A stretch of 64,000 nt of DNA from Patescibacteria group bacterium (GTDB lineage: Bacteria > Patescibacteriota > Microgenomatia > UBA8517): positions 1,478 through 65,477 of the forward strand of contig JALHYA010000002.1 in the NCBI GenBank assembly GCA_022868165.1, written 5' to 3'. The position numbers and the translations under genes were made by a program. Positions 29,410 through 53,942 of this stretch are shown here, in pieces; the first letter of the stretch is position 1; each line of letters begins with the position of its first letter. The notes beneath the pieces were generated by a model that saw only the letters and a list, made by a program, of their open reading frames with translations, was not told the DNA's origin and ran no database searches.

Positions 29410-29417
29410 TCCAGAAC

Positions 29418-32813: not shown

Positions 32814-32828
32814 TGCTTTACCTCCTAT

Positions 32829-33311: not shown

Positions 33312-33320
33312 TGTGACCTC

Positions 33321-36405: not shown

Positions 36406-36420
36406 CTTTTACCTCCTTCC

Positions 36421-36558: not shown

Positions 36559-36559
36559 A

Positions 36560-36724
36560 TTATTTGTCTCCTTTCTTCTTCAATTTTTCCTTTATCTTCT
36601 TAGCTTTCTCGACAATCGCTTTCCTTGTTTCCTTGCCAGACTTCGGTGCAAACAATATTCCTGTTATAGCACCCAACACTGCTCCTACGGCAAGACCGAT
36701 ACCAAACTTAGCACCTGTTTTCAA
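36560..36724 (-). CDS. YtxH-like small membrane-associated protein (54 aa; GIGLAVGAVLGAITGILFAPKSGKETRK)
   Basis: Hand-translated. TTG start after a GGAGG SD. Confidence 0.4.
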   Translation of the reverse strand: MKTGAKFGIGLAVGAVLGAITGILFAPKSGKETRKAIVEKAKKIKEKLKKKGDK

Positions 36725-36992
36725 TGCTTGCCTCCTTTGTTTACTCTTTTATTTCCCTTGCTACCTTTACGTCTGTATCTCATGTTATATCATATTTTCT
36801 ACGAGCTTCATCAAAGCGTTTATTTTTACGGGCATACACTCCATAGAATTTACGATAATATGGGCTTGTCTTGCTGGTTCTGCTTATTTTGATTTTCGGC
36901 ACCTAGCCTTTTCTACGCAATTCAGCACTTTTTCTCTCTGCCCAATCCTTAGTTCCTTCACCGACTTTTATCATATTGCTTACCTCCTTTCC

Positions 36993-37274
36993 TTATACCT
37001 GATGTCTCATCCTTCGCAATGCTTGGTCAGGGTCTCCAGTATCCATCAATGTATTATGCCTCATGTTGCCCTGCACCCTAGAAGGGTCTCTGTACGGCGA
37101 TTCAATGATTTCCCATACAACACCCTTTAGCCTTCTGAATGCTATCGTCCGAGCCTCTTCCTTTGAACGACAATCGGGAAGCGGGCCGTCAAAAAATGGT
37201 CGGCCTTTATAATTGGCAGCATAAATGTAATAGTACATCTGATGACTAACTGGCACTATCATCCTCTGTTTCAT
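36993..37274 (-). CDS. Hypothetical protein
   Basis: ORF track 93 aa. Confidence 0.45.
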   Translation of the reverse strand: MKQRMIVPVSHQMYYYIYAANYKGRPFFDGPLPDCRSKEEARTIAFRRLKGVVWEIIESPYRDPSRVQGNMRHNTLMDTGDPDQALRRMRHQV

Positions 37275-37276
37275 TG

Positions 37277-37558
37277 TTATTTCCTTCTCCGTTTTGGCTT
37301 ACCAAACACCATTCTATCGAGTTTACTAAGCGTCTTCCCTACCGACTTTATGCCTTTACGCAAATCCGTTGAGCCTCTTCTGCCTTTCAGTTGTCTAGTT
37401 TTTGCTCTCAATGTTTCTAGCTCCTTCTTTGCATTGATTTCCCCTTGCAATGCTTTATGTCTAGCTCTTTCTGCTTCGGTTAAAGCCTTTAATCGCTTCG
37501 TGTTATCGATGGCTTGCCTGACTCGCCTCTGCCTTCGTTTCTGTAGATATTTCATCAC
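37277..37558 (-). CDS. Highly basic coiled-coil small protein
   Basis: ORF track 93 aa, Lys/Arg-rich. Confidence 0.5.
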   Translation of the reverse strand: MMKYLQKRRQRRVRQAIDNTKRLKALTEAERARHKALQGEINAKKELETLRAKTRQLKGRRGSTDLRKGIKSVGKTLSKLDRMVFGKPKRRRK

Positions 37559-38274
37559 GTCCTCCTGCGCATTTTCCTATAGAATTCCATCTTTTCATCC
37601 AAGTCCTGTATGTGCTGATAGGGACTCGGCGGCAATATTGGCTCTTTCTTAGGTCGTAGAAAACCTAGCGAGCCAAACATCGTTACCATACAAAGTAGAA
37701 AGAAGCCCACTAACCCCAAATTAGCCGGCATATTATTATCGAGATTAAAATAAGCAAAGAACATAAGCACCATCCACGCACCGGCTGACAACACGGAAAG
37801 CACTGCTCTCCTGTAAATAAAAGTCAAGGCACTAATCGCTAGAGCTATGGCTACTAACCCAATCCACAAATAAGATAAACTCATGAATTTCGCCTCTTTG
37901 CTTGCCCCGATTGCTTCCCAAATTCCATCAGCCCTCTGCGACCAAGCCCTGTAGTAAGCAACTCTTGGCGACGTAAGGTCAGCATTTGAATCCGTAAAAC
38001 TGCTGTCAGTTCCATAATACACCTGATAGCCGTCTGTTCTGTCTATAGGCAAACTGCCGTATTTGACCCTCACCATTGTGTTGACAGCACCCGCCGGCTT
38101 CGTCCATGATATTCCCAATTCGTAATCGCTGACATAGGTTAATGTGAAATTCCCCGGTGAGGCTACCACAATACCCGTAACGGTTATCACCACATCCGCC
38201 GTTGTCGATGCCAATGCCGGGAACGGCACTAATCCCACAACGAGCAACCCAAGAACTATAAACCATTTCCACAA
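37555..38274 (-). CDS. Secreted protein with C-terminal TM helices. N-terminal mature sequence STTADVVITVT. Paralogue of 38888-39400 and 39460-39636.
   Basis: Signal peptide plus conserved TTADVVIT box. 3 C-terminal TM helices. Confidence 0.6.
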   Translation of the reverse strand: MWKWFIVLGLLVVGLVPFPALASTTADVVITVTGIVVASPGNFTLTYVSDYELGISWTKPAGAVNTMVRVKYGSLPIDRTDGYQVYYGTDSSFTDSNADLTSPRVAYYRAWSQRADGIWEAIGASKEAKFMSLSYLWIGLVAIALAISALTFIYRRAVLSVLSAGAWMVLMFFAYFNLDNNMPANLGLVGFFLLCMVTMFGSLGFLRPKKEPILPPSPYQHIQDLDEKMEFYRKMRRRT

Positions 38275-38284
38275 TCTTATTACC

Positions 38285-38842
38285 TCATCGCATGCTAACC
38301 AACCATCGACTGCATAGCTCAGTAGTCACGGTTCCTGCCTGCGAATTATCCATAACGCTAATCCAAAATTCCCATTTCATAGGATAGTTGGTAACATCTT
38401 TCGGCATTTCAAGCACCACTAAGATATCCCTTGTTTCTCTTGGGGCAAGAACAGGCGTGGGGTCGGCCACAATCACCCAATCCTGAGCTCCTACAGGAGG
38501 TTTCTCATAGCCCGGAGCTACATACGATGGCTCACGATATGTAACCGCAAATTTAGCAGGTAAACTGTTGCCGTTATGCACAGTTATATTGTATTCAGCC
38601 CTAGCTCCCGGATAGTAATTACTAATGTTCACCTTGCCTGGGCTGAGCCACGTTCTATCAGCCGGAGGTTCTTGGCTTGTTTCGCTTGTAACCTCTTTAA
38701 TGGCTTCAGGTGTTTGCGAAGCATCGTTAGGAGCTGACGGCTGAGGTGCTACAGGCGGAACTGCAGGAGCCACAGGATATGCCTGTACACATCCAATAGA
38801 CAATATTCCGATTAGTACTAATCCTAAAACTAAGTACTTCAT
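38285..38842 (-). CDS. Secreted or lipoprotein-like Pro/Ala-rich protein
   Basis: Signal peptide LSIGC, then a PAVPPVAPQPSAP linker. Confidence 0.55.
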   Translation of the reverse strand: MKYLVLGLVLIGILSIGCVQAYPVAPAVPPVAPQPSAPNDASQTPEAIKEVTSETSQEPPADRTWLSPGKVNISNYYPGARAEYNITVHNGNSLPAKFAVTYREPSYVAPGYEKPPVGAQDWVIVADPTPVLAPRETRDILVVLEMPKDVTNYPMKWEFWISVMDNSQAGTVTTELCSRWLVSMR

Positions 38843-38887
38843 AGTTTCACCTTATGCGTGATTTGTATGCGCATCCCACTATTCTTT

Positions 38888-39400
38888 TTAGTTCGCTGCT
38901 GCAGCAGTTATCCGAGTTGTCACTACCTTTGCATCGCCATCGAGAAAGCTAGTCGGAGCCCATATTGAAAGCCCGAATTGGTAAGAGCCGCCAGTAGTTT
39001 GGTTATCAGAAAGCATTGCAGCCGAAGCGATTTTTGGCACTGTGATGTCGCTAGTGCCCCATGTGCCACCCTTGTTTGCTTTCAAGCCAACGGTAGCTAC
39101 CGCCGGAACACATGTGTCACTGTGAATCCAGCCAGCACCGCCAGACCAATTGTCGGTAGTATTAACACCGATAGTCTGGTCTGTCACTATAGTACAAGCA
39201 TTAGTTACGGTAAAGTAAGTCGTAGTCGTATTTTCAGTCGTACTTTCCGTTACAGATGGATTCCACACACCAGGGTCTACTGAGATGCTGATATAACCCG
39301 GTGTAGCAGTTATAACAACATCGGCAGTTTTAGCAGCAAATACAGCCGTCGGCATCAGCAACACTACCAAGACTAAGAACACAAACAACCATCTTTTCAT
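38888..39400 (-). CDS. Secreted protein, mature N-terminus AKTADVVITAT (paralogue family)
   Basis: Signal peptide plus conserved box. Thr-rich. Confidence 0.6.
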   Translation of the reverse strand: MKRWLFVFLVLVVLLMPTAVFAAKTADVVITATPGYISISVDPGVWNPSVTESTTENTTTTYFTVTNACTIVTDQTIGVNTTDNWSGGAGWIHSDTCVPAVATVGLKANKGGTWGTSDITVPKIASAAMLSDNQTTGGSYQFGLSIWAPTSFLDGDAKVVTTRITAAAAN

Positions 39401-39459
39401 TTTAGCATACCTCCTTTCCTTATTTCTATTATATCACAGTCGACCTCTGTGTGTATCAT

Positions 39460-39636
39460 TTATCTCTTCTCCATATTAACATTCACTCGTACAGTTACGT
39501 GTGATGATAGATATGAGTTATCGCTTTTGACCGTAACGTCTGTTGTAGTTGCTTTAGCAGGAATATCACTCGTGCCAAACATTATGACAATTAGCAAAGC
39601 AACTAAAATTACTAAACTTTTAATCTTTCCTCTCAT
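39460..39636 (-). CDS. Small secreted protein (58 aa), mature N-terminus AKATTTDVTVK (paralogue family)
   Basis: Hand-translated. ATGA overlap with the stop of the upstream 569-aa gene. Confidence 0.45.
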   Translation of the reverse strand: MRGKIKSLVILVALLIVIMFGTSDIPAKATTTDVTVKSDNSYLSSHVTVRVNVNMEKR

Positions 39637-41342
39637 GGTATGTACACCGTGCTAGTCAGCGTAACGTTATCGGACTTCGCCACGCCATCGGTAAATTCTC
39701 CGGTCTCAAGTTTCAATTCCCACATCATCGTTGTGTTGTCTCCTAAGTTAGATATAAAAGGCTGGTCACTTGTGGTTAGCGTTACGTTATCAGTAACCAC
39801 ATCACCGCTCTTAAAAGCTAAAAGCCGTACCGTGCCCAAGCCCGGTATATTCGATGTCAGAGTCCAATTATCCCCAGCACCGGTAAAATTTGTAGCCTTT
39901 ATGCTTATGTCTATTGCAACCGAACCATCATTGGTAACAGAAAAACTGCATTCGCCATTATCAATTGGAAATATAGGAGCTGAACCTTTTGCCCAGTAGT
40001 CTGCATTCTCCTGCACATCTCCGATAACCCAGTAATCAGGTGTATTTGAGATGCTTGCCGTATCCCAAATTAAGTCATCACTTTTATAGAAATATACTTG
40101 ACCTGCCCAATAGTCTTGGTCAGTAATCTCTAGATAAATAAGTGCAAAACCAGTCTTAGTCCTATTTGTTTTAAGCCCGCTTACAGTAGGATACAATGCC
40201 CATATTAGCACAGGTGCTTCAAACACCCCCCCCCCGTCTGCTATTACTTCTAGAGTCTGCCAAGATATAGTTCTCTTTCTGTATTTTACATAATCTCCTT
40301 CGACCCATACAGTATGGACATTGTCTTCTGAGTCCATAGATATAGAGGAGTAAATGTTATCTCCGTCCATATTAGTTATCGCTTCCTGAGTTTGCCAGGA
40401 GGTAGTCCTTTCCCTATACTGAACTTGGTAGTGACTAGTGTAATCACCCCAGCTAGTTCCACACCAAACGACATGAATACTGTCCTCTGAGTCTACAGCT
40501 ATAGAACAATCAACCTGGTCTCCGTCTACGTTAGTCACTGCCTCTTGAGTTTGCCACGATGTAGTCCTCTTTCTATATTGAATCTGAGAGTGAACAGGAT
40601 AGTCTCCCCAACCCATTCCCCTCCAAGCTACATGGACATTATCCTGTGAATCTATGGCAATGGTAACGCAGTCGCCCCCATATCCGTAGTGAGCTTGAAT
40701 ATTATCTATATTAGTTATATCTTCTTGGGTCTGCCAGGAGGTGGTTCTCTCTCTATAATGAATCTGATACTGATTAGTATAAGTTCCTGTTCCTTCCCCC
40801 GCCCAAACGACATGAATGTTGTCTTGTGAATCTATGGCTATAGAAGGGGAATGTTGATAATATTCTACGTTTGTTACAGCTTCTTGAGTTTGCCAAGAAG
40901 TGGTTCTTTTTCTATATTGAATCTGAGTATAGTCAGGGTAAGTGCCCCATCCATATCCTTCCCAAACAATGTGAATATTGTCTTCTGAATCCACAGCAAT
41001 AGAAGGATTCATTTGGTAATTGCCTGATGTTGTTACACTTTCTTCTGTCCATGTTTGACCATTGTTGGTAGAATAGGCACAGCATATATTATAATCCCAC
41101 GTTTCTGCATCCTCTCTCATATATGTAGCCCATAAAGTGCCATCACTTGTACGAGCCAAGTTTTTTTGCCCATTATAAATGTCAGTAAGTTCATCTGCTA
41201 ATAGATAGGTAGAACCACCAGGATTAGCATGAACTACTGGAGTATCAATAGAGGGAATAAATAAACCAGCAACAACCAAGAAGACAACCATCAATATGGG
41301 TATAACTGGTGTCTTAGCAAGTAGCCAAGTTATCTTTTTCAT
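39633..41342 (-). CDS. Secreted 569-aa protein with five tandem ~47-aa repeats (beta-propeller-like)
   Basis: Repeat unit ..DN(I/V)H(I/V)VW.G.GWG.Y....QIQYRKRTTSWQTQEA(V/I)TN(V/M)D. Confidence 0.7.
   Translation of the reverse strand: MKKITWLLAKTPVIPILMVVFLVVAGLFIPSIDTPVVHANPGGSTYLLADELTDIYNGQKNLARTSDGTLWATYMREDAETWDYNICCAYSTNNGQTWTEESVTTSGNYQMNPSIAVDSEDNIHIVWEGYGWGTYPDYTQIQYRKRTTSWQTQEAVTNVEYYQHSPSIAIDSQDNIHVVWAGEGTGTYTNQYQIHYRERTTSWQTQEDITNIDNIQAHYGYGGDCVTIAIDSQDNVHVAWRGMGWGDYPVHSQIQYRKRTTSWQTQEAVTNVDGDQVDCSIAVDSEDSIHVVWCGTSWGDYTSHYQVQYRERTTSWQTQEAITNMDGDNIYSSISMDSEDNVHTVWVEGDYVKYRKRTISWQTLEVIADGGGVFEAPVLIWALYPTVSGLKTNRTKTGFALIYLEITDQDYWAGQVYFYKSDDLIWDTASISNTPDYWVIGDVQENADYWAKGSAPIFPIDNGECSFSVTNDGSVAIDISIKATNFTGAGDNWTLTSNIPGLGTVRLLAFKSGDVVTDNVTLTTSDQPFISNLGDNTTMMWELKLETGEFTDGVAKSDNVTLTSTVYIP
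40352..41042. repeat. Five tandem ~140-nt coding repeats within the 569-aa gene
   Basis: Protein periodicity. Confidence 0.65.
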
Positions 41343-41354
41343 TTTGTACCTTTC

Positions 41355-41525
41355 TCATTCGTTTATTATTACCGTGCCCGCACCTATAGCCGCCTTGCCA
41401 ACCGGTTTATCATTTATAACTGCCGTTGCCATATCGTAGTGTTCCGCACAATAGCATTTACCCTCTAACCAATCTTTACCTGTTTTCTTACATTTAGGCC
41501 AAGCACAACTGCCATTGTCTGCCAT
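41355..41525 (-). CDS. Small Cys-rich protein (56 aa; CAWPKCKK...CYCAEH)
   Basis: Hand-translated. GGAGA SD. Confidence 0.4.
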   Translation of the reverse strand: MADNGSCAWPKCKKTGKDWLEGKCYCAEHYDMATAVINDKPVGKAAIGAGTVIINE

Positions 41526-41526
41526 A

Positions 41527-41988
41527 CTATTTTCTCCTTACTGTTTTAAGCCCGGAATAAGGCTCTGCTCTGAATAGCCCGAACACACGTTTCTTTTTCT
41601 TTACGGGCTTCTTACCTCGCCCAAATATCCCAATTTGCGAGAAGAAGGAGTGATGTCCCCTTATATCCGCCATTACATCATAATTAAACGGCATTTTCTC
41701 CGTCTTTAACGCCACCAAATGAGCCGGCCAATATTCCACACCATTCTCCATCAGCCTCATTTCAATCAGTTCATGTTTCAAATTTTGAACTTGCGTTTCC
41801 TCTGACAATGTTTTGTCTATCAAAATTTCCTTTGTCTTTTTGTTGTTATCTATGTCAGGAAATCCCATAGCTCTGGCTGCTTCGGGGTTCATCGCTGAAT
41901 AATCGTGAAGGATTTTAGAATCGGTGAATACTACCTTTATGCCATTGTCTTTGCAGTACCCCAATAATTCCTTAAATTCTTTATTCAT
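41527..41988 (-). CDS. Hypothetical protein
   Basis: ORF track 153 aa. Confidence 0.5.
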   Translation of the reverse strand: MNKEFKELLGYCKDNGIKVVFTDSKILHDYSAMNPEAARAMGFPDIDNNKKTKEILIDKTLSEETQVQNLKHELIEMRLMENGVEYWPAHLVALKTEKMPFNYDVMADIRGHHSFFSQIGIFGRGKKPVKKKKRVFGLFRAEPYSGLKTVRRK

Positions 41989-41989
41989 C

Positions 41990-42271
41990 TTAGTATCCCG
42001 GTGGCAGCATTCCTGGTGGTTGTTTTGGTGGCTTCGGCGGAAAGATAAAGTCCTCTAAAGCCCAGACAAGAAATCCCAGAGGCACTACCAATGGAACAAA
42101 GGTCCCTATAGCAGTTATGTCTCTGGCATTCAGAAAATGGGCAGAAGATGACAGCATGGCAACAGCTACGCCTTTGACAATCCCATACCCGACACCGCCT
42201 GCAAATAAAGCTAGAGGTACTTTCCAGATTAGATTGACATACTTCTTGAACTCATCCATTTTATCTCGCAC
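41990..42271 (-). CDS. Small membrane protein (2 TM)
   Basis: ORF track 93 aa. Confidence 0.5.
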   Translation of the reverse strand: MRDKMDEFKKYVNLIWKVPLALFAGGVGYGIVKGVAVAMLSSSAHFLNARDITAIGTFVPLVVPLGFLVWALEDFIFPPKPPKQPPGMLPPGY

Positions 42272-45200
42272 CTCTTAGCGATGGCATAGGCTCTATCTGT
42301 GCCTTATGTTTTATGTGATGCTTTTTATATTTGTGAGCAAGCTCAAATTCTATTTCAGGTTTTTTACCAGCAGGTGTTTTGCTTATGTCAACATCCTGTA
42401 TGCCCATGCTAAATTTAATATCCTCTGGTATTCTACCATATTTGGCTATGATTGACTTTGCCACAGAGCCTATACCCTTTACATATTCAACTCCCTCAAT
42501 CGGGCTTCTGCTATAATAAGTATTCTTCTCAGGATAATGTCCATTCTTGTCTGGCCACTTTAGCCAAAAAATGAAACCCTGTTTCCAAGCCACAATGCCC
42601 TGTTTCTGTTTCTCTGTTAGTTCTATAGTTCCTTTGCCACCTGCACCGGGGATTATTATGATTGGCACAGGCAAACGAGGCTTTATAGGTGTTGCAAGTT
42701 TGGTAATTATCTTTTGTTGATATTTGGTTTCGATTAGTGTCTTGACCTTTGGGTTGGCAAGGGTTTTTAGCTGTGTTTGTATTGCAGCCCTTGTAGCTGC
42801 TTCAATTTTGGCTTGCAACTCTGCATTCGTTGCCGTTATGGTGGCTAGGTTCAGTTGAGTCTTCGTTAATCCCGCAGTACTGACACGAGAACTCGTCATG
42901 GCATCTACAAGCGTCTCATTATATGCTTTAATGGCTGCTTCAGTTACTGCTTGAAGCCCAGCCTGTAATTCTTTCTCTAATCCAGTCAGCGGCCTGGAAA
43001 CTGTAGTCACTATCTTAGGCATAAAAACACCAGGAATCTCAGGCATCTCTATAGGTTTTTCCGGCAACCACGGAGAGGTGGTAAAAATAAGTTTTCCACT
43101 AGTTCCAAATTTCGGTTCCTTCATTCCGGGAAAGACACTTCGGGTCTCTAATGTAACTTTTGGTTGAATAGCAATATGATTTGTGACTTTATAGGTCGAT
43201 TCACTATCGGAGATAACCTTCGGCACTTTTGTTGCACCTTCGGGCACGCTGGGTTTTTCTTTGATTTTATAATTTGGCTCTAACTCTAAGTCAAAAGTTA
43301 ATTGCTCGGCAACAACTGGCCTTTCTGCTACTGCAACAGGTCGAGGTCTTTGTTCAATTGTCTCTCTGGTTATCTCAATTTCCTTGCCAGTCTTTAGGTC
43401 AATCGCCTTTTCTTTGACAGTTTTCACAATGGGGCTGGCGGGAGAGATTGGCTCTTTTGGTTCAAGTTTGCTCTTCGGAGTCTTGCCCCAGTATGGCTCT
43501 GCTTTGCCAAAGCCCATTTTGTAATAGGTGGTTGCGTCAGCCGGCAAAGGCTGCCCTTTATTCATTAACTTGGTATATTCTGCCATTTTGGATTCTAGGT
43601 CGCCAATATCGCTATTCAATGACCTCAAATCATCTCTGATTATTTCTTTCTCTCCAGACGATGTGACTGGATTAGAATATTCTCTTTCGGCAATGCTACG
43701 TTGCCTCTTTGCCATTTCTAACCTTTTCTCTATTGTATTGATAACTTCTACGGAAGATGGTGCAGCAGTTGTCCGATACCGAGGCTTTGAGATATTGTCG
43801 TTCCAATTCTCAAGTGTTGCGTTCAATTTAGTTTTAGCATCATCAAGATTCTTTAATGCCTGCAATCTTTGAGGAGTATTCACCTTTGTTTTATCAACAA
43901 CATTCCAAGCCTTGTTAACACCTGAGATTGATTGGTTGATATCTTTGATACCTTGCCCGATACTTAACTTACCTCCAAGTTCTTTGAGCCTCTGCAACTG
44001 AGAAGTTGTCAGTTTTTCCGATACCTTTTCTGTTAAGCCTTTTAACTCTATAATTTCAGCAGGCGTCTTGTTTGTTATGCCTTGAAGTTGCTTTACTCTT
44101 GACAAAGTCTTGGCAGACATTGAAGATTCAGATATCTTCTGAACACTTATTTTATCAAGTTTACTCAATCTTTGAAATTCCAGTTCTTCCATTTTTGTTC
44201 TACCAATTAATTTGCTTAGTTTCTCCAATTGGCCAAGTTCCTTTGGAGTTATATCCTGTAATATCTGTAATTTGTTAAAGAGTGCTTTGTCAGTAACTCT
44301 CGATTTCTGTATAGCCTTCTGAACATCATTGGCTAACCTTGCATAACTATTGCTCTTCAAAGGAATCTTCTCAAGTTTAGTTAAACTTACTTTCATATCA
44401 TCATAAGCTGCGCCACTCTCTTTGGCTAACTTCAGAAGCTTCTCTGCTTCTAATCTGCCAACGCCAACTGCAACTTTGCCCTTTACTGACTCAAAGGCAA
44501 CTGCCTGTGGAACATTGGCTCGCAAGATTGCTGCTTCCTCTGGAGAAACAGTGACTAACTTATCTAGTTTTGCCTGCAAGGATTTAAGACTGATAGAATC
44601 TGGATGCACCAAAGCCTTTTTGAGATACCTACCAGAAAGGACATAATGTTCTGCCTCGGCTGGTGCCCATGTAGCAGCTTCTCCAGTAGGCTTAAACTTG
44701 GGCAGTTCTTTTGTAGGTATGTCAACAAAGTAAAGAACACTCTCGCCTTTTCCAGCTGTGTATGCTTTTGCCTCTCCAATATCTGCCGAGTACCACCTGC
44801 CTGATACCTTTTTCTCAGCACCAGCTAACTCGGCAGCAGTCTTGCCTCCAGTCATATAACTTCTGCCGGGTGAAGGCTCGCCACGATATACTCTTGTATA
44901 ACCTTCAGCTACCGGCATCGCTTTGCTTCTCAATATACCCAACTCTTGAGTATTCGCTATCTGCTTTATTGCTACAGAAGGCATTTTCGCTGTCTTGGGA
45001 ATCTCTACTTTAGCCTGTGCTTTAGCAGGTAGAGACCTGATTCCTTTCAGTCCACTCAGCACACCAGAAATAACCCAAGCATCCATCAAGGCACTAATAG
45101 CTATGTTTTTCTTTGCTTCATCTTGTTCAGCTATTGTCATGGTATCCCATTTTGTCATAACATCATTGGCACTCTTGACTGTTTCAGCAGTGAAGACTAC

Positions 45201-47528: not shown

Positions 47529-47761
47529 ACTGCAGCTCCGCCATAGAGCAGATACGGCAGATTATGCACAATGATATGGTCAAAGGAATTATAGTTAGGT
47601 ACTGTGCTATTATCGCTGGCGATATAGCCTGTAGTATTGTCCGTCAAGGGTTTTACCATAAGGGTATCTATGCTTGTATAAGCATCAAACACACCTGAGA
47701 ACATCATCAGTAGCCCTAACCCTGTCAAGACCGCTCCCAATATCAATAATCCTTTTCCCAT
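47483..47761 (-). CDS. Small membrane protein
   Basis: ORF track 92 aa, 2 TM. Confidence 0.5.
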   Translation of the reverse strand: MGKGLLILGAVLTGLGLLMMFSGVFDAYTSIDTLMVKPLTDNTTGYIASDNSTVPNYNSFDHIIVHNLPYLLYGGAAVCIIIGLGNMRSGEQ

Positions 47762-47772
47762 ATCTCACCCCG

Positions 47773-48132
47773 CTATTGCCCAAGCAACATAGTTCTAACC
47801 TTCCATATTATATCAATTAAGAAATACAGACTAGCTATGCTAAACACAATGCATATAGCACGGAGTATAACTAGCCAGCCTGTAAATATGCCATAGTCAA
47901 AGCTAAGAGCTTTCCATATATCCTTTACCACGTTCCATACCATCGTAACACCACTAGCACTCGCCAAGCCGGGGTCGCTCAAACCTCCTGTACCTTCAAC
48001 AGCAGGGTCGCCTAGAGCAGCTGACATACTGGCAGGCATCAAAGCTGGCTGTGCTGGTTCAAGCGCATTGCACCACATAGTTGCCCCTATCCAGAAAACC
48101 AAGACAAAGAAAAGCCATTTCGGAGTGTTCAT
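47773..48132 (-). CDS. Small membrane protein
   Basis: ORF track 119 aa, 2-3 TM. Confidence 0.5.
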   Translation of the reverse strand: MNTPKWLFFVLVFWIGATMWCNALEPAQPALMPASMSAALGDPAVEGTGGLSDPGLASASGVTMVWNVVKDIWKALSFDYGIFTGWLVILRAICIVFSIASLYFLIDIIWKVRTMLLGQ

Positions 48133-48133
48133 T

Positions 48134-49966
48134 TTACACTATACTCCTGATTCTGTAAATGCCATAGCCGATACCAACCAATGAGACAAATATCGGTACA
48201 AGCACCGGTATATGCAATGTAGGATAGGCTACCCAACTAGCAAATACACAGATTATCACAATAGCCTCTATACTATGCGTCCACTTGTAAATGGCATAAG
48301 ACAAACCAGCCAAGATTATTAGTAGGAAGATGTATGTAAGGCTGCCCATCGGTATTCCGGTTGAAGTAGAACCTCCTCTGATAAACACAAACAGGGGTAT
48401 ATTGTTTTCCAATGCAGCAGATACGCTTGGTGTCTGCGTCATACTACTAGGATTGCTTATTGCCGTGCCAGTAGTACCTATTGCAGAGCCAGCCGCAAGC
48501 GTTGTAGCATGTATTATGGTGTAATTATCGCTATATAATAATACTGGGTCATAACCTACTAAAAGATAGCAATAATCAATTCCGCTTGTCAGCCCAACAT
48601 GTGTGAAAGTGGAGCCGGTGGCAACATATATCAGGGCACCATCTGTTTCATCAGCTGGACAAGCATTGGCTCTGAATCTTATATAAGTATTGGGAGCACC
48701 GACACCCTTTACCCACGACAGTACAACATTGTCGTAGCCAGGTATAGCAGTGACATTGCTTGGGCTGCCCACACTTGACCCTGTTACAAATGATTTGCTT
48801 GTACCATTATCAGAACCGCAGACATTTTGAGCTTGCACATTGAAGTAAGTCGTGTTGTCAGAAACCAAATTATCAACATCAAGATATGGACTTTGACCTA
48901 TGGTATAAGCACCTGCAAAAGCCGAAGGTGAACCTACTCCGTTATAGGCATCTATGTCAGTACCTTTGTCTATTGACCCCCAGCCGAACCTGACTTGGCA
49001 GGTAGTTCCACCATCATCAACAAGATAAGACTGCAATCTAGCCGAAGATACGGTTTTATCAGTTGCATCAGCAGTTGCTATTACAGGGTCTTTCCAAGTG
49101 GTAAAACTTTTAGTAGTCCCCCAGCTTGTTCCTTCGGAATTTGTTGCGCTTGCACTGAAATACATCAGAGTGCCAGGGACTAAGCCAGTAACATCATGAT
49201 AAAATGCTGCTATGCCCTGAGTTGGCGTGCCAGGAGAAGTGATATTGTCCCCAGTAACACTATTGTCCCAACTTCCGGGTGTCGTCACGCCGTCATTATC
49301 ACCCCAATAAACAGTCACCGCAGGATCTACACCACCAGTGACCGTAATATTGCCATTCAAGGTCGCACTAGTACAAGCGAAAGGATTTGCTGTGCTTGTA
49401 GTTACTGTAGGTGCCGACAAAGGAGTATAATTAACGGTAATTTTAAGATAAGAAATGTGGACAGTAGAAGAACCGTCAGGAATAATGCTTTTTATTCCCC
49501 ACTCTGCATTATTCAAATCTGCTGTAGACCAGCCTGTTGTGGAAAAAGTGTATGTGCTTGTTTGATATACATACGTATTACTATATAGTATTGTGCCATA
49601 ATAGTTTGCGCCACCTATTCTGTAATAAGGAGTCGTTGAAGTACTTGCATTGCCTCCTCCATACCAAACCCTCGTCAAAGTTACACTATCTATTGACTGT
49701 GCAGGTTCTGCAAAATCAACCATATTGTAGCAATGATACCAGACACCATAATTATTAGTAATTAAATAACTTGTATCGCCATCATCTGAATTTAGATTAG
49801 TATAATCTCCGCCTGGCAAATAACCGCCATCCGTCTGCCCGCCTTCACCCGTAATATTTTCACTTATTGAATCAGCATACACAGGCTGTACAAAAGGTTG
49901 CACAAAAGGCAATGTCAAGCCTACCAGAAACAACAACAAAACCAGAGAATAAAATATCTTTTTCAT
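48134..49966 (-). CDS. Exported Thr/Ser/Gly-rich surface protein (611 aa) with multiple C-terminal TM helices
   Basis: ORF track 48134-50173. Start moved to MKKIFYSLVLLLF (signal peptide), which gives an ATGA overlap with the upstream stop. Confidence 0.65.
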   Translation of the reverse strand: MKKIFYSLVLLLFLVGLTLPFVQPFVQPVYADSISENITGEGGQTDGGYLPGGDYTNLNSDDGDTSYLITNNYGVWYHCYNMVDFAEPAQSIDSVTLTRVWYGGGNASTSTTPYYRIGGANYYGTILYSNTYVYQTSTYTFSTTGWSTADLNNAEWGIKSIIPDGSSTVHISYLKITVNYTPLSAPTVTTSTANPFACTSATLNGNITVTGGVDPAVTVYWGDNDGVTTPGSWDNSVTGDNITSPGTPTQGIAAFYHDVTGLVPGTLMYFSASATNSEGTSWGTTKSFTTWKDPVIATADATDKTVSSARLQSYLVDDGGTTCQVRFGWGSIDKGTDIDAYNGVGSPSAFAGAYTIGQSPYLDVDNLVSDNTTYFNVQAQNVCGSDNGTSKSFVTGSSVGSPSNVTAIPGYDNVVLSWVKGVGAPNTYIRFRANACPADETDGALIYVATGSTFTHVGLTSGIDYCYLLVGYDPVLLYSDNYTIIHATTLAAGSAIGTTGTAISNPSSMTQTPSVSAALENNIPLFVFIRGGSTSTGIPMGSLTYIFLLIILAGLSYAIYKWTHSIEAIVIICVFASWVAYPTLHIPVLVPIFVSLVGIGYGIYRIRSIV

Positions 49967-52722
49967 GATGATTGAAACAGCATCTTTGCCAACCACAGAA
50001 CTACTAACATTAAAAATACAAAACCTATTGCACCTATTATTGCTATTGGTATACCTCCAAAGACAAAGCCGGCACCACCGGCAAAAAACAGCCCTATGAT
50101 AAGCCCTGCTATGCCATGCCCTACACCAACGCAACCTATACCTATAAACAAAGCCAATCCCAAAAGCACCCAACCTATAATTGTTTCAGCGTCAACACCA
50201 ACTAGATTGGCTGCCTCCATAACTCTACCATAGGCATCCACCCCAAGTGCTGCAGCCGGGTCTGGAACAAGCAAGGTGTGTGAAGTTACACCCGGCTTGG
50301 CAATACCAAACGAGGTATAAAATAAATTAGGTCTGACTATTTCCAAGCCCGGAATGCCACGCATAAATATTATACTACCGGCCTCGTTAAGAACCTTGAC
50401 TGTTTGCCCAGCAGAACTAATTAAATAAGCAGTACTGTAATACGTTTCGTATGTTGAAGCCAATGTTCTGGCATAACTGTCAAGATACAGCAAACTGCCA
50501 GCACTCCAATCGGCAGGAACTAGTGCATACTCAGAAAGAACATCATTATTGAACAATGCCTGAATCCTGATTTTACAAGTGGTATCCCCCCATGACAAGG
50601 CACTTGCTGTACCTGCGTTCAGGTAGATTGCCAATGGTTGCCTTCCCCAAGCCCTAAAATTAGTGGCACCTTTTGTTATATTGTCGCTTATAAGTTGCAG
50701 TTGGAAATACAATTGTGAATCATTGTCAGGATAATAAGGTACATAGATATTATTCACATCAGCCACTATCAGCCAATCATCAGCTTGTTTATAGCCAGTG
50801 AAAACCTTCGTGCTTAGCACTTCTATACAGGGGTTGCCCCATATCTCAAACAAGGCGTCTTTTGAAGCATCTGCTACGAATATCAATCCACCATCGGTTG
50901 ATGTGCCATATATTGCATCAGCCAATCCTCCTCCGTTGTCAACACCCCAAAGTATATAGTTTGATGCATCACCAGTCTTAGCAGCAATTACTATAGCGTA
51001 TTGCTGCCCACCTTCAAGATTCACATTGATAGGCAGGCCTGCCGCATCTGTATCAAAATGATACATCGTATAACCTGTCGAAATAGCATTGCCATCAAAG
51101 GTTGTAACTACTAGGTCATTACCCGTAGGCTTTCCGCCTGCAGCGTGTTTCAATGAAAGTGTTACCGTGCCTACCAAAGGAGTTGCGGCACTAACACGCT
51201 TGATATAAACATTTATACTTGTTACCGTATGCGAAATATTATCAGAAGTCAGAGGATTGGTAACTGTAAATTGCTGATACCCCCAAGTATTGCCATAGAT
51301 AGCAGCACTGTTATTATCAGACCCACTATCCAAATATTCATATCTGGCTGGCGAACCTTTGGTGCTGAAAACTGCATCGACACCATTGCCTTGGGCACCA
51401 TTCAAGGCTATAGCTCTGTAGTGATAGACCGTAGCCGGTGATAAGCCAGTCAGGTTAGCCCAGTAATTTATGCCCAAAGTAGGTGTAGCTGTAACCAAGT
51501 ATTGAATGCCATAGGATGTAGTCAACCCATATTCAAAGCCATATTGTGTAGGCACGGCAGCACCGTTTGCTGTCACCATGCCATTAAGCACTGCAGTACT
51601 GTCTGTAAAGCCTGAGCATACCCCAGTTACAACTGTTGGTGGTACGAAAGGAGGAGGAACAGACTCTTCACTTCCAAAGCTCCCCCATGTTGGTTCGGTA
51701 GCCGTATAAGCACGAACTAATACCCAGTCAACCTGAATTTGTGTAGGTACAGAATTTTTATAAGTACCTATTACAAGTGGCAAATCAACAGTAGGCGGAT
51801 GTGTGTTATGGGTAACAATAGATGTGCCATTGGCGTAAAAGTATTGAGCACTTGTACTTTTAATATAAAAGATATCGTATATATCCCAACCATTTCTAGT
51901 AATAAGGTTTTGAGTAGTAGTCTCTTGATGTGCTCCGTCTCTTGTTATAACATCATCGGCACCCTCCATTTCAAAACGTGCTGATGCTACAGTTGCATTT
52001 AAGTCTTCTCCGTAGCCCATAGCTGTATATTTACCACCACCAGGTTCCAATATTGCTTTCGCCCTAAGTGCAGATGTGCCATAATTCGTTACTCCGTTTA
52101 TCTGCTCATAAGCTGCATCAACGCCAGTAACAGTTACAATTGAACTGGCAACAACTACAGTTGGACTTCCCACCTGTTCCCAAGTTGGATAGGCAACTAG
52201 GAAAGCTGCGAGATTAGCAGCATCAGCATCAAAATGGTTAAAGAATGAGAAGGTATTTGCCCCACTACTTACTGCTGGTGCAGCAGCATTGCCATAATAT
52301 AAATAGATAGTAGTGTCGGCAGCACCCGCCAACAAAGGTACTTCAACCCAGACTATTGCACTAACTCCATCCGTTTTGTTTTCAATCCAGTAATCAAGTA
52401 ATGTATTCTCCGCCGAATTAGTAAATCTTACATCGTCAAAGTCAGCAACAGAGGCGTTGGGCATATGAATAATAGCCGTTGCTTGCGCCCCTGTAACATC
52501 GTCAATATCAGCTCCACCGTAGTGAAGCGTTATTTTCATCGGATAATTAACAGCACCCAAATCGTCTGTTTGGTCTACTACTTTTTGCTTCTTATATGCC
52601 CAATCTGTATCATACCAGGCAGCTTCTGCTCTTTGCGGGAATAATGAAACAACTAGGCTAGCAATAAGGAATACCGCCAAAAGAATTGGCAATCTCTTTG
52701 TTATGTTCCTAATTAAATTCAA
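49963..52722 (-). CDS. Exported 919-aa Thr/Gly-rich surface protein with C-terminal multi-TM anchor
   Basis: Signal peptide MNLIRNITKRLPILLAVFLIASLVVSLFPQRAEA. Gly-rich C-terminal TM helices. Confidence 0.7.
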   Translation of the reverse strand: MNLIRNITKRLPILLAVFLIASLVVSLFPQRAEAAWYDTDWAYKKQKVVDQTDDLGAVNYPMKITLHYGGADIDDVTGAQATAIIHMPNASVADFDDVRFTNSAENTLLDYWIENKTDGVSAIVWVEVPLLAGAADTTIYLYYGNAAAPAVSSGANTFSFFNHFDADAANLAAFLVAYPTWEQVGSPTVVVASSIVTVTGVDAAYEQINGVTNYGTSALRAKAILEPGGGKYTAMGYGEDLNATVASARFEMEGADDVITRDGAHQETTTQNLITRNGWDIYDIFYIKSTSAQYFYANGTSIVTHNTHPPTVDLPLVIGTYKNSVPTQIQVDWVLVRAYTATEPTWGSFGSEESVPPPFVPPTVVTGVCSGFTDSTAVLNGMVTANGAAVPTQYGFEYGLTTSYGIQYLVTATPTLGINYWANLTGLSPATVYHYRAIALNGAQGNGVDAVFSTKGSPARYEYLDSGSDNNSAAIYGNTWGYQQFTVTNPLTSDNISHTVTSINVYIKRVSAATPLVGTVTLSLKHAAGGKPTGNDLVVTTFDGNAISTGYTMYHFDTDAAGLPINVNLEGGQQYAIVIAAKTGDASNYILWGVDNGGGLADAIYGTSTDGGLIFVADASKDALFEIWGNPCIEVLSTKVFTGYKQADDWLIVADVNNIYVPYYPDNDSQLYFQLQLISDNITKGATNFRAWGRQPLAIYLNAGTASALSWGDTTCKIRIQALFNNDVLSEYALVPADWSAGSLLYLDSYARTLASTYETYYSTAYLISSAGQTVKVLNEAGSIIFMRGIPGLEIVRPNLFYTSFGIAKPGVTSHTLLVPDPAAALGVDAYGRVMEAANLVGVDAETIIGWVLLGLALFIGIGCVGVGHGIAGLIIGLFFAGGAGFVFGGIPIAIIGAIGFVFLMLVVLWLAKMLFQSS

Positions 52723-52808
52723 TTTTCAGTTTCCTTTTTTTAGATGAAGAGCCCAGCCTCTTATAAAGGCCGGGCTCTCCCGATTGCACCACGTTCCGGC
52801 AGCTAGCT

Positions 52809-53003
52809 CTACAGCATGCTTCCGCCCTTGCGCATGGCCTTGATAAACGCCCAGATGACCAAGAGAACACCAAGACCCACTACCAATGCAAGTAGTGGCG
52901 TTGCCCACGTTGGCAACAGATCGGTGTTTACGGTGGCGATGAACCCAGCCAAGAAGCCGCATATCAGGACTAGCCCGACTACTAACTCTAGAATCGCATC
53001 CAT
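52809..53003 (-). CDS. Small two-TM membrane protein (64 aa) in a locally GC-rich segment
   Basis: ORF track. Competing frames at 52726-53049 (-) and 52816-53085 (+). The hydrophobic frame is preferred. Confidence 0.4.
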   Translation of the reverse strand: MDAILELVVGLVLICGFLAGFIATVNTDLLPTWATPLLALVVGLGVLLVIWAFIKAMRKGGSML

Positions 53004-53079
53004 TTACTTTTACCCTCCCGCACCAAATCAGTGCTGTTTGCCTTTGCAAGTGAGAGGTATAATGAAAACTCGTTGTTTA

Positions 53080-53838
53080 TCATAATGCCTTTATCCCTAA
53101 AGTCCAAGTGACAACATTAGTTGTCCGAACATCAAAATTCAGCCAGATACTTTTGCTCGTACCGCTATTCAAGGAAAACTCAGGAGTAATCCAATATAAT
53201 TTAGACAGCAAAGTTGAAACATCCGAATTAGATTGAACTGCCCCTGTTTGATTATCTGCTGTAAAACCAGACAACGTACTCTTTACACATCTGTGAGTTG
53301 CATTCAAGTCTAAAGTTGCAAATGTCGATGGGCTTAAAGGTATCAGGGAAATTAAAAGAGAAGGCGTCGCTGAGGCACCTGTGTTGTTTACCACTACAAC
53401 TGAAACATCTTTGTTGCCAGTCTCTGATGCCATGCTGATAATTTGATTGCGGTCTAAGGTAACTGAATATCCCCCACTAGTCGCCGTAGTGCCTCCTGCT
53501 GTCGTTGTCGAAGTTGTTGCTGTAGCAACTACCGGATGAGCAACAAGATAAGCTGCAATGGCTGCATTTAAATCAGATGTTTTTACATAGCCAGTAAGCG
53601 AGCTATTTATCGCTGCCTGAACATCTGCCTGGCTTACGCCGGATTTGCCAGCAATGGTATTTATACTCTGCCCTTGTGCAGTGATTTGCCCTTGCAATCC
53701 TGCTATATCAGATTTATAAGCGATGCCATCTGCGGGAGCCGCCGGAGTTGCTGTTTGCGGTACACAAGCTATCGTAACCATCAAAAGAACGAGTAATAGC
53801 ACTATGCCCATTGAAAGAGCAAATACATGCCTTTTCAT
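53080..53838 (-). CDS. Secreted or lipoprotein-like Thr/Ala-rich protein
   Basis: Signal peptide ...LLMVTIACVPQ. GGAGG SD. Confidence 0.6.
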   Translation of the reverse strand: MKRHVFALSMGIVLLLVLLMVTIACVPQTATPAAPADGIAYKSDIAGLQGQITAQGQSINTIAGKSGVSQADVQAAINSSLTGYVKTSDLNAAIAAYLVAHPVVATATTSTTTAGGTTATSGGYSVTLDRNQIISMASETGNKDVSVVVVNNTGASATPSLLISLIPLSPSTFATLDLNATHRCVKSTLSGFTADNQTGAVQSNSDVSTLLSKLYWITPEFSLNSGTSKSIWLNFDVRTTNVVTWTLGIKAL

Positions 53839-53942
53839 CGTACTGCCTCCTTGTTTATTTTATTCGCCTAGCCTAAAAATAATTATAATCTACTTTAAAT
53901 AGTAGACTATAAAAGTGCGTTTGTCAAATACACTACCTGAGA

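Follow-up and report, generated by a model that had tools for sequence, protein, structure and literature searches.

A gene module of about 23 kb, which runs on the minus strand from the gene for a 252-aa protein to that for an STT3/AglB-type oligosaccharyltransferase (53838 to 30846), is, judging from gene order and sequence comparison, the backbone of a rare and undescribed family of extrachromosomal mobile elements of about 27–91 kb. We describe it in a window, which is the whole stretch of 64 kb analysed out of a 65.7-kb contig (JALHYA010000002.1 of assembly GCA_022868165.1). Tentatively, and with slightly less than even confidence, we interpret it as the module for envelope formation and morphogenesis of a membrane-associated virus without a tail, or of a virus-like vesicle, the spikes of which would be glycosylated by the element itself. 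The particle, we think, may be a virion of pleomorphic, filamentous or internal-membrane type, or else a virus-like vesicle.

Extent and conservation of the module

The window had originally been predicted to hold a discrete operon of exported proteins at 37555–53838. All genes of this block lie on the minus strand, as do all features given below unless stated otherwise, and encode, in order, proteins of 252, 919, about 610, 119, 92, 1755, 93, 153, 569, 170, 185 and 239 aa. Strand, order and lengths were as predicted, the 1755-aa ORF corresponding to 1740 aa from its ATG. The genes are tightly coupled, as had been proposed, with gaps of -4 to +12 nt at most junctions, an ATGA overlap at the 919/610 junction and 4-nt or 1-nt overlaps elsewhere. 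Directly upstream of the first gene lies a sigma-70-like promoter (TTGACA-17-TACTAT, 53899–53927), followed by TATAAT and an AGGAGG ribosome-binding site. The gene list was incomplete, because a conserved two-helix membrane protein of 64 aa (p64, 52809–53003) and ORFs of 56 and 58 aa had been overlooked. Also overlooked were the embedded Zot/FtsK-HerA-like ATPase, the small DNA-binding-type proteins and the place of the module as the backbone of small extrachromosomal elements.

The limits of the block did not survive comparison with syntenic loci in about ten related metagenomic contigs. The conserved module runs on to 30846, and 37555–53838 is, on the evidence of this synteny, its larger half and not a unit by itself, the boundary at 37555 being arbitrary. 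Independent contigs from different samples keep the gene order 250 aa, DUF2341 protein, about 610, about 118, about 90, giant, small genes, about 230, about 145–180, about 300 (ATPase), about 88 and transferase, and BLAST bears out the orthology of the module genes across contigs.

Contigs of the family measure 23–91 kb and none is of chromosome size. In the 27-kb contig L004 the module occupies about 15 kb, which is more than half of such smallest elements. The lone match among 185,579 species genomes was one 1.9-kb contig, and neither IMG/VR nor the phages in GenBank include the family. The family of the module's ATPase has 129 representatives among 1.84 billion clusters and is a practical marker for finding further members of the element family. 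In relatives, the module adjoins replication and mobile-element genes (D5_N/DUF5906 primase-helicase and AAA_25), and the window also carries YopX, DUF5131, DNA methyltransferases, and HNH and HTH proteins. Host signals conflict: two contigs are binned with Patescibacteria genomes and the promoters are of bacterial type, whereas the transferase is of archaeal type. Such mixed signals, together with the anoxic, methanogenic habitats of the elements, suggest that these could be markers of genes moving between episymbiotic bacteria and archaea.

Exported and small membrane proteins

Signal peptides and membrane anchors dominate the block, as the original prediction held, and its proteins are largely of a Sec-type exported, membrane-anchored and adhesin-like kind with DUF2341, fn3-like and BNR-like domains. 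Signal-like N-terminal hydrophobic segments are found in the proteins of 252, 919, 610, 119, 92, 569, 170, 185 and 239 aa, and C-terminal multi-helix anchors in those of 919, 610 and 239 aa; Thr and Ser together make up 21–25% of p252, p610 and p170. The first gene encodes p252 (53080–53838), in which a lipobox-like signal peptide is followed by a coiled segment rich in Ala and Gln, a linker rich in Thr and a beta-rich C-terminal domain; p252 has no family match in Pfam, PHROG or NCBIfam and is kept in the related contigs L002 (75%), L003 and L004. The small p64 has two hydrophobic helices and is a candidate for a major membrane or coat protein; its homologues occupy the equivalent place in L002, which has two copies, and in L003 and L004.

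p919 (49963–52722) consists of a signal peptide, a DUF2341 adhesin-type domain (Pfam, 1.7e-20), an fn3-like domain and a Gly-rich multi-helix C-terminal anchor, and is kept in L002, L003, L004 and L008. DUF2341 is known from pilus-tip and large Patescibacteria exoproteins (PMC4858521, PMC11809585). The start of the conserved p610 (48134–49966) overlaps the stop of p919; p610 carries a signal peptide, Thr/Ser-rich fn3-like ectodomains and two to three C-terminal helices. p239 (37555–38274) joins a signal peptide and an fn3-like domain to a multi-helix membrane domain that is conserved and has a basic tail; L003, L004 and L008 have this membrane domain alone. The fn3-like domain is common to p239 and p610 (E 3e-9) and to p610 and p919 (E 8e-4). 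Among the smaller proteins, p119 (47773–48132) has a signal peptide and a C-terminal transmembrane helix, and p92 (47483–47761) and p89/93 (41990–42259) have two transmembrane helices each; p56 (41355–41525) is conserved and Cys-rich, and p153 (41527–41988) is soluble, with weak M78/IrrE-like matches and a homologue in the distant member L021.

A cassette between the giant gene and p239 differs from element to element, which fits the expectation for host-recognition proteins. Its p569 (39633–41342) has a signal peptide, five to six BNR/Asp-box-like propeller repeats and a beta-rich C-terminal domain. Five repeats of about 53 aa, each closing on Y[RK][KE]RTxSWQT, and weak BNR/SBBP Pfam matches bear out its earlier description as a five-repeat protein; no homologue is present in L002–L004 or L008. 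p58 (39460–39636) is a short secreted peptide with a TTTDVTV motif, p170 (38888–39400) is a secreted, Thr-rich beta protein with its own upstream extended -10 promoter-like site (39455–39428), and p185 (38285–38842) is a Pro-rich, lipobox-like secreted protein with a weak homologue in L002. Paralogy, which had been proposed for three secreted proteins, is not detectable (BLAST E-values above 0.4); the proteins of 58, 170 and 239 aa have nothing in common beyond a signal peptide and, after it, a T(A/T)DV(V)(I/T)(T/V) motif.

The giant protein and searches for hallmark genes

The giant protein (42261–47483, the ORF extending to 47528) has 48-aa repeats in its N-terminal part and the motif GIDAGGNRIWIGG, a single hydrophobic helix that lies centrally and is conserved, a spacer of coiled-coil and Pro-rich sequence that varies, and a conserved C-terminal domain of about 110 aa. 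It had been counted among the exported proteins; it has no signal peptide and so is not exported, and its sequon density is low. Its description as a coiled-coil protein suits the middle third, which is coiled-coil-like in composition, but not the rest. Among relatives, the length varies from 1062 to 1755 aa via the variable helical middle part. A model of the N-terminal 560 residues consists of hairpin-plus-helix repeats and beta elements, not of a continuous helix, and a PDB search with the conserved N-terminal region gave no structural neighbour. The flanking genes encode small membrane proteins, not tail chaperones.

All ORFs of at least 50 aa in the window were scanned with Pfam and PHROG, and NCBIfam was also used. 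The Pfam and PHROG scans, which covered essentially every window ORF, gave no capsid, portal, terminase, tail, VirB4 or PilB-type protein, in agreement with the earlier statement that no capsid, portal, tail tube or sheath is recognisable in the block. Likewise, no window ORF matched a tape-measure, tail tube, sheath, baseplate, Dit/Tal or HK97 capsid family in Pfam, PHROGs or NCBIfam, and no block protein matched a tail chaperone family; the sole tail trace in the block was tail_tube_6XGR at an E-value of 0.059, far below the cut-off. There is no sequence-profile match in the window to a double or paired single jelly-roll major capsid protein, and no PilB/FlaI-type ATPase, PilC/FlaJ platform or prepilin peptidase among the window ORFs. 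VirB4/TraC, VirD4 and relaxase are found neither in the window nor in the precomputed Pfam annotation of related contigs. No Rep family was found, and no block protein has a PHROG match of VP3/VP4-type membrane or spike homology. The capsid negatives hold at the level of sequence profiles, and fold-level comparison covered two proteins, p302 and the N-terminal region of the giant.

The ATPase p302 and its neighbours

p302 (34162–35070) is a P-loop ATPase with the Walker A motif GDPRSGKS and the Walker B motif LDECD. Judged from its AF2 model (pLDDT 88), it is structurally closest to viral morphogenesis and packaging ATPases such as STIV2 B204 and Zot/pI. The top 13 neighbours in the PDB are all the STIV2 B204 genome-packaging NTPase (E 7e-7 to 2e-5; TM 0.52–0.57 on target), and the Zot N-terminal domain comes next (2r2a, 2.4e-5). 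This similarity is at fold level only, with a TM of about 0.5 and 12–18% identity, and RecA and KaiC are just one to two orders of magnitude worse. The top three models in BFVD are Inoviridae Zot proteins (E 3e-7 to 1e-6); also listed are proteins of AMDV archaeal viruses, the ATPases of mavirus and PH1, the A32 ATPase, ATV ORF286 and a protein of Acholeplasma phage L2. Of 92 distant sequence relatives of p302, 18 match Pfam Zot (best 1e-10), two match Pox_A32 and one matches HerA. p302 itself has no Pfam match at an E-value of 0.01 or better, and profile comparison by hhalign is weak (about 6% probability for M13 pI and about 5–6% for STIV B164). It has an extra N-terminal part of 75 residues and a C-terminal beta domain, and no hydrophobic segment; the transmembrane segment that Zot and pI have C-terminal to the ATPase domain is missing.

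p144 (35045–35479) is soluble and conserved and has an acidic N-terminus; there is a 26-nt overlap between its gene and that of the ATPase. p228 (35490–36176) has one transmembrane helix at either end; its gene always lies two genes upstream of the ATPase gene, with p144 in between, and on this gene order p228 is likely to be the membrane partner of p302. The interval 36226–36724 encodes a YtxH-like protein of 54 aa, a DUF5679-like zinc-ribbon of 45 aa and a zinc-ribbon of 59 aa; a 284-aa plus-strand ORF at the same place looks spurious. Two small soluble proteins, a very basic one of 92 aa and the conserved 93-aa p93c, are encoded at 36993–37555. Conserved small genes at 32469–34160 encode wHTH-like (88 aa), two-helix (72 aa), zinc-ribbon (122 aa), 160-aa and multi-helix (114 aa) proteins.

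Oligosaccharyltransferase and glycan island

The last gene of the module (30846–32465) encodes a short (539 aa) STT3/AglB-type oligosaccharyltransferase, which matches Pfam STT3 (1.7e-9). Its best NCBIfam model is archaeo_STT3 (1.6e-60), the score of 205 bits being below the family cut-off of 450. The enzyme is like archaeal AglB and archaeosortase-A-associated oligosaccharyltransferases in this best model, in its STT3 core domain and in an HWNYG sequence in place of the WWDYG-type motif. However, those enzymes are 700–900 aa long, and the present one belongs to a separate clade, which is found only on contigs of at most 91 kb, together with the module.

An island of glycan-synthesis genes (11969–30688) encodes GT2 glycosyltransferases, epimerases/dehydratases, a DegT aminotransferase, methyltransferases, B12-radical SAM enzymes and two DUF2206 membrane proteins. 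The transferase is syntenic with the module in the window and in five related contigs (L003, L004/L005, L007, L018 and L021), and glycan-synthesis genes come after it wherever the contig extends far enough. Such linkage upholds one part of the original suggestion that the adjacent island glycosylates the surface structure; glycosylation itself is presumptive. Sequons are present in the exported proteins, and their counts are not significantly above those of composition-matched shuffles.

A tentative model for assembly of a possible membrane-based particle

The ATPase, the small DNA-binding-type proteins and the role of the module as the backbone of small elements together move the balance, we infer, from a cell-surface apparatus to a particle-forming module. 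In the model that we propose, the promoter at 53927–53899 would drive a translationally coupled operon, as the motifs and the gene coupling suggest. p252, p919, p610, p239 and the variable cassette (p569 propeller, p170 and p185) would be exported by Sec, in keeping with their sequence features, and held in the cytoplasmic membrane by a lipobox or C-terminal helices, where they may act as spikes or adhesins. The small two-helix proteins p64, p92, p119, p89, p72 and p114 may form the membrane matrix. The ectodomains would be N-glycosylated by the element's short STT3/AglB-type enzyme with glycans from the adjacent island, the synteny being observed and the chemistry presumed. Soluble Zot/FtsK-HerA-like p302, docked on p228, would move or condense the element DNA into the nascent particle, helped by p144, by the basic protein of 92 aa and by the proteins of zinc-ribbon and wHTH type; such a DNA-loading role is proposed because of fold similarity and gene linkage. 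More speculatively, the giant, anchored by its one central helix, could link the side of the DNA and the ATPase to the envelope as an internal tether, or serve between the two as a scaffold or ruler.

Known viruses and vesicles offer partial parallels. The best viral-model matches of p302 are Zot proteins, its distant relatives match Pfam Zot, and the gene map of the inovirus M13 (Tubulavirales) likewise combines Sec-exported proteins with C-terminal helix anchors, adjoining tiny hydrophobic proteins and an ATPase downstream. Inoviruses have 5–15 kb of ssDNA, a rolling-circle Rep protein and a pVIII-type coat. In contrast, the elements here are 27–91 kb long and have a D5-type primase-helicase and DNA methyltransferases, p302 lacks the transmembrane segment of pI and itself fails the Zot model, and the giant, the transferase and the glycan island have no inovirus counterpart. 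Membrane-containing icosahedral viruses, whose ATPases (STIV2 B204, PRD1 P9 and A32 type) belong to the FtsK-HerA superfamily, provide the closest solved structure, B204, as well as the PH1, mavirus and A32-type neighbours of p302, and they too have genes for numerous small membrane proteins and for spikes that are glycosylated or turret-like. However, no jelly-roll capsid is found here by sequence, the conserved core is almost devoid of capsid-size soluble proteins, and p302 differs from those ATPases in its extra N-terminal part and C-terminal beta domain. Pleolipoviridae, Plasmaviridae and plasmid vesicles (pR1SE) do without a capsid and have a single P-loop NTPase, small membrane proteins, and spikes that carry a signal peptide and are anchored at the C-terminus. 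Their gene logic is alike, the architecture being analogous only, and the structural neighbours of p302 include a protein of Acholeplasma phage L2. In contrast, the proteins here have no PHROG sequence similarity to theirs, the genomes are several times larger, and the giant, the self-encoded transferase and the glycan island are without counterpart there.

Alternative explanations

Several observations weigh against a particle. No capsid protein of known fold was identified, the likeness of p302 is confined to the fold, with RecA and KaiC close and profile comparisons weak, virus catalogues lack the family, and sequons do not exceed shuffles. A surface function that is purely cellular would also agree with the DUF2341, fn3 and BNR domains and the glycan island. 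A possible, if rather unlikely, alternative is that the module serves cell-surface remodelling or adhesion on a plasmid-like element, forming a new glycosylated coat or attachment organ used, for example, by an episymbiotic Patescibacterium or for the exclusion of competing viruses, with the ATPase serving element maintenance. The adhesin-type domain shared with Patescibacteria exoproteins, the typical cell-envelope functions of the glycan island and the transferase, the lack of a capsid in the window, the absence from virus-detection catalogues and the two contigs binned with Patescibacteria genomes all agree with it. However, every member has the module linked to an ATPase that is structurally nearest to enzymes of virion assembly and packaging, the module also encodes small basic, zinc-ribbon and wHTH proteins, it fills over half of the smallest elements and is never on chromosome-sized contigs, and the giant has no signal peptide.

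An unconventional DNA-transfer apparatus of a plasmid, either a conjugation pore or a vesicle system of the pR1SE kind, by which the plasmid would reach recipient cells without a true capsid, is improbable. Many membrane proteins, one FtsK-HerA/Zot-type ATPase, the lack of a capsid, contigs of extrachromosomal size with primase-helicase genes and adhesin-like ectodomains that could mediate cell contact would suit it. Against it, no ORF matches VirB4, VirD4, relaxase, TraG or a T2SSE-type ATPase, and the ATPase has just 302 aa and no membrane segment; a vesicle-borne plasmid would be functionally near-identical to the virus-like particle that we favour, and sequence cannot tell the two apart.

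A divergent tail module of Caudoviricetes, with the giant as tape-measure protein, is hardly tenable and was rejected: the length-variable helical middle part and hydrophobic segment of the giant recall many tape-measure proteins, and phage-type accessory genes (YopX, DUF5131 and HNH) are nearby, but no terminase, portal, HK97 capsid, tube, sheath, Dit/Tal or tape-measure family was found in the window, the domain content differs, the N-terminal 560 residues of the giant match nothing in the PDB, its neighbours are Sec-exported and membrane-anchored, and GenBank phages and IMG/VR give no match.

Implications

Within the preferred reading of a virus or virus-like vesicle, a more specific proposition, that the elements are dsDNA viruses of Patescibacteria (CPR) that form a new lineage, non-tailed and enveloped by a membrane (pleomorphic or filamentous), is unlikely. 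Such viruses would assemble at the membrane via the Zot/FtsK-HerA-like ATPase, and an archaeal-type N-oligosaccharyltransferase of their own, fed by a private glycan pathway, would decorate their spikes. If this were true, no virus family with a self-encoded N-glycosylation transferase would have been known before them, and they would be the first type of non-tailed virus for CPR. If the broader reading is true, large mobile elements or viruses have been wholly missed by current virus-detection catalogues, being absent from IMG/VR and free of PHROG and Pfam hallmarks, and a membrane-based particle would be built from orphan proteins by an element that brings its own STT3/AglB-type transferase and a glycan pathway of 18 kb. 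By N-glycosylating particle or surface proteins with an enzyme of its own, a mobile element would then have a new route to the control of cell-surface recognition and immunity.

Organization of the gene block

All real genes between positions 37555 and 53838 lie on the minus strand, in the order and with the lengths given in the original prediction. The tight coupling described there is also borne out: the junctions are mostly -4 to +12 nt, and the 919-aa and 610-aa genes overlap by ATGA. Most gene starts are preceded by strong AGGAGG-type ribosome-binding sites. A promoter-like TTGACA-17-TACTAT followed by TATAAT (53927–53899) lies within the 104-nt gap that precedes the first gene, and comparable sites, having either a perfect -35 or an extended -10, are located upstream of the 170-aa gene and of the 355-aa gene (63281).

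The expected abundance of signal peptides and membrane anchors is seen in hydropathy profiles: the 919-, 610- and 239-aa proteins (p919, p610 and p239, named by length) have N-terminal signal-like segments and C-terminal multi-helix anchors, and the small transmembrane proteins have one or two membrane helices. The 569-aa protein does consist of five clear repeats of ~53 aa; it contains an Asp-box-like STNNGQTW, and its BNR/SBBP matches are weak. An fn3-like domain is common to p239 and p610 (3e-9), and one is common to p610 and p919 (8e-4). The 170-, 185- and 239-aa secreted proteins had been regarded as paralogues. They show no detectable kinship (BLAST E > 0.4), and what they have in common is signal peptides and a short motif only. 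The motif (A/S)(K/T)T(A/T)DV(V)(I/T)(T/V) is located directly after the predicted signal-peptide cleavage site in the 58-, 170- and 239-aa proteins (37555–39636, minus strand), and their homologues in the related metagenomic contig L002 have a similar hydrophobic, beta-strand-like start. This motif may act as a common signal for processing or for assembly by strand exchange.

A 64-aa protein, a 56-aa ORF, a 58-aa ORF and a DUF5679-like zinc ribbon are to be added to the original gene list. The 64-aa protein (52809–53003, minus strand) lies between the 252-aa and 919-aa genes, has a good ribosome-binding site and two hydrophobic helices, and is conserved, with positional homologues in L002 (two tandem copies) and in two further related contigs, L003 and L004. 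It is a candidate for a major membrane or coat protein. The plus-strand 284-aa ORF at 36276–37130, called by one gene caller, is low-complexity and Phe/Leu/Ser-rich. It runs antisense to three short conserved minus-strand genes encoding YtxH-like (54 aa), DUF5679-like (45 aa) and zinc-ribbon (59 aa) proteins and is probably not a real gene.

Conserved module and its relatives

The NCBI contig, 65.7 kb long and binned as "Patescibacteria group bacterium", is covered almost entirely by the window. Comparison with syntenic loci places the block within a larger conserved module (53838 down to 30846) whose gene order is kept. In the relatives, the order is ~250 aa, a DUF2341 protein, ~610, ~118, ~90, the giant protein (1062–1755 aa) and small genes, followed by ~230, ~145–180, ~300 and ~88 aa, more small genes and an STT3/AglB transferase; orthology across contigs was confirmed by BLAST. 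The tightest core in distant members comprises p93c, p228, p144, the 302-aa ATPase, a wHTH protein, p72, p122, p160 and the transferase. In every contig that is long enough, glycan-synthesis genes come after the module.

The p569-p58-p170-p185 stretch between the giant gene and p239 varies between elements, being replaced by other secreted proteins in L002 and missing from the related contig L008. Pfam searches with the cassette proteins of the relatives matched nothing. Because this stretch differs between elements and p239 is reduced to its membrane domain in L003, L004 and L008, it may represent an exchangeable host-recognition cassette.

The module is rare. Only nine further cluster representatives of the giant protein were found among 5.8 billion clusters, and its alignment matched, among 185,579 species genomes, solely a 1.9-kb contig of a Saccharibacteria MAG. 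Searches of GenBank phages by tblastn with the giant protein, the ATPase and p610 gave nothing except one insignificant p610 match, and neither single sequences nor alignments of the giant protein and the ATPase matched IMG/VR. At the end of the 27.4-kb JGI contig L004 (19943–20011) there are four iteron-like (A/T)ATTATCAC copies, which may be a replication origin or an assembly-breaking repeat; L005, an independent assembly of the same element, stops 69 nt earlier.

The 302-aa ATPase

The ATPase gene (34162–35070, on the strand of the module) encodes Walker A GDPRSGKS and Walker B LDECD motifs, and its product matches nothing in Pfam, PHROG or NCBIfam. The family is rare: 29 clusters are close, and 1.84 billion clusters contain 129 representatives with E of at most 1e-3; a profile scan of JGI metagenomes yielded no more than 11 short contigs. 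A confident AlphaFold2 model computed from 30 sequences (pLDDT 88, pTM 0.85) has as its top 13 PDB matches the B204 genome-packaging NTPase of Sulfolobus turreted icosahedral virus 2 (E 7e-7 to 2e-5, TM 0.51–0.57 on target), followed by the Zot N-terminal domain and then KaiC and RecA. Among the BFVD viral models, the top three are Inoviridae Zot proteins (3e-7 to 1e-6), and other matches include AMDV archaeal viruses, mavirus, PH1, A32-type ATPases, ATV ORF286 and an Acholeplasma phage L2 protein. Distant relatives match Pfam Zot (18/92, best 1e-10), Pox_A32 (2/92) and HerA (1/92). Direct profile comparison with M13 pI and STIV B164 was weak (~6% probability), and M13 pI has a membrane segment whereas the 302-aa ATPase does not. 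We conclude that, by its fold, the ATPase probably falls in the broad Zot/FtsK-HerA group, which serves virion morphogenesis and packaging in non-tailed viruses, but in none of the named families.

The giant protein

For the giant ORF of 1755 aa, the most likely start is the ATG at 47483, which yields 1740 aa, the length in NCBI record MCJ7805215.1. It had been listed among exported proteins. Because it lacks a signal peptide and has a single central hydrophobic helix kept in all ten homologues, with low sequon density on both sides of that helix, it is not regarded as exported. The model of its N-terminal 560 residues (pLDDT 77) consists of repeated hairpin-plus-helix units and beta elements, with no structural neighbour in the PDB by Foldseek (best E 0.76). 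The conserved C-terminal domain of ~110 aa matched nothing in Pfam or in a PDB sequence search with the domain profile, and PDB sequence searches with the full-length protein, with its residues 850–1000 and with the 332-, 337- and 355-aa proteins gave nothing useful. An R-S-E pattern, RVYRGE ... WYSAD ... AEAEHYV, is found at residues ~868–960 (44700–45000, minus strand) in this member only; its reading as an ADP-ribosyltransferase-like YRG...S...ExE was rejected, as neither Pfam nor PDB sequence searches supported it. Speculatively, the giant protein would act as an internal tether or ruler.

The transferase and the glycan genes

The 539-aa STT3/AglB-type transferase (30846–32465, on the strand of the module) matches Pfam STT3 at 1.7e-9 and NCBIfam archaeo_STT3 at 1.6e-60; the latter score, 205 bits, lies below the cut-off of 450. 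Its close relatives, 500–580 aa long and forming ~32 clusters, are all on contigs of at most 91 kb, whereas cellular enzymes of 700–900 aa, such as that of Methanolobus, are much more distant; by these sequence comparisons, the transferase is therefore of a lineage specific to these elements. The predicted link between the block and glycosylation genes is conserved across contigs as synteny. Sequon enrichment was discarded as evidence of glycosylation, the counts being not above shuffled expectation.

A GDP-mannose 4,6-dehydratase gene (17840–19834, minus strand) is double the normal length at 664 aa: the sequence breaks after ...LFNHES and restarts at SPRRGETF, with an insert of ~325 aa between. 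The insert terminates in HN and includes a LAGLIDADG-like motif, GYIVGDGH, and so resembles an intein that carries a homing endonuclease. In the related contig L021, an intein is found in a DegT aminotransferase. The glycan island also encodes two adjacent paralogous DUF2206 membrane proteins of 454 and 456 aa (23293–26064, minus strand), presumably the two with DUF2206 matches, next to a B12-binding radical SAM enzyme (26061–27536). The pair may be glycan polymerase or ligase-type proteins.

Other genes of the window and the host

Pfam and PHROG scans covered essentially every window ORF of at least 50 aa. They matched DNA methyltransferases, HTH regulators, a helicase, HNH, YopX, DUF5131, an IS240-type transposase and many sugar enzymes. 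Not one of these ORFs matched a capsid, portal, terminase, tail, VirB4/VirD4, relaxase or PilB/PilC family, in line with the earlier statement that the block has no capsid, portal or recognisable tail tube or sheath. Related contigs additionally carry a D5_N/DUF5906 primase-helicase and an AAA_25 protein. Neither a type IV pilus nor a conjugation system was retained, for want of a matching ATPase or platform proteins, and an inovirus proper was rejected on the grounds of genome size and replication genes.

A 39-bp tandem repeat lies ahead of the IS240/IS6-type DDE transposase (9500–10637, plus strand, 351 aa), which is located where gene orientation and GC skew switch, at ~11.3 kb. The gene of the HNH endonuclease-like protein (4584–5483, plus strand) contains a 108-bp tandem repeat (4744–4970) that would encode a repeated Lys/Gln-rich peptide segment. 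The 355-aa P-loop protein (62214–63281, minus strand), with weak AAA_28/ABC matches, a weak HVO_A0261-like C-terminal wHTH domain and a near-consensus extended promoter upstream, may be a replication or partition ATPase of the element.

A bacterial host is suggested by two independent bins assigned to Patescibacteria or Saccharibacteria, by sigma-70-type promoters that are placed between genes as expected and have short Shine-Dalgarno leaders, and by the YtxH-like protein. Archaeal affinity is suggested by the archaeal-type transferase and the two DUF2206 membrane proteins, DUF2206 being mainly archaeal. No tRNA genes were found in the window or in 14 related loci and no Rfam families were found, so that tRNA and RNA families gave no clue to the host.

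Interpretation

The best single explanation, which we hold tentatively and at somewhat less than an even chance, is that the block is a particle-forming module of a non-tailed, membrane-associated virus or virus-like vesicle. This reading is favoured because the module is always accompanied by a morphogenesis-type ATPase and small nucleic-acid-binding-type proteins, because it serves as backbone for small extrachromosomal elements (in L004, ~15 of 27 kb) and is absent from chromosome-sized contigs, and because it holds a cassette exchangeable between elements. The surface apparatus of the original prediction is half right: exported, membrane-anchored and adhesin-like proteins are indeed encoded in the block, but the further observations point beyond a cell-surface structure, and a plasmid-borne module for cell-surface remodelling is rather unlikely. 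An apparatus for DNA transfer or vesicle formation is improbable. The tail module proposed at the outset, with the giant protein as tape measure, was rejected since the window scans found no hallmark genes, and even a divergent one is very hard to credit. The probability left over falls to explanations outside those considered.

The element family was not described in the literature searched, including searches for virus-encoded AglB and for Zot with oligosaccharyltransferase. In function, the proposed particle-forming module looks like membrane-based morphogenesis of non-tailed viruses with a Zot/FtsK-HerA-type ATPase. Compared with such morphogenesis systems, it is unusual in that it includes a giant orphan protein and encodes an N-glycosylation system of its own.
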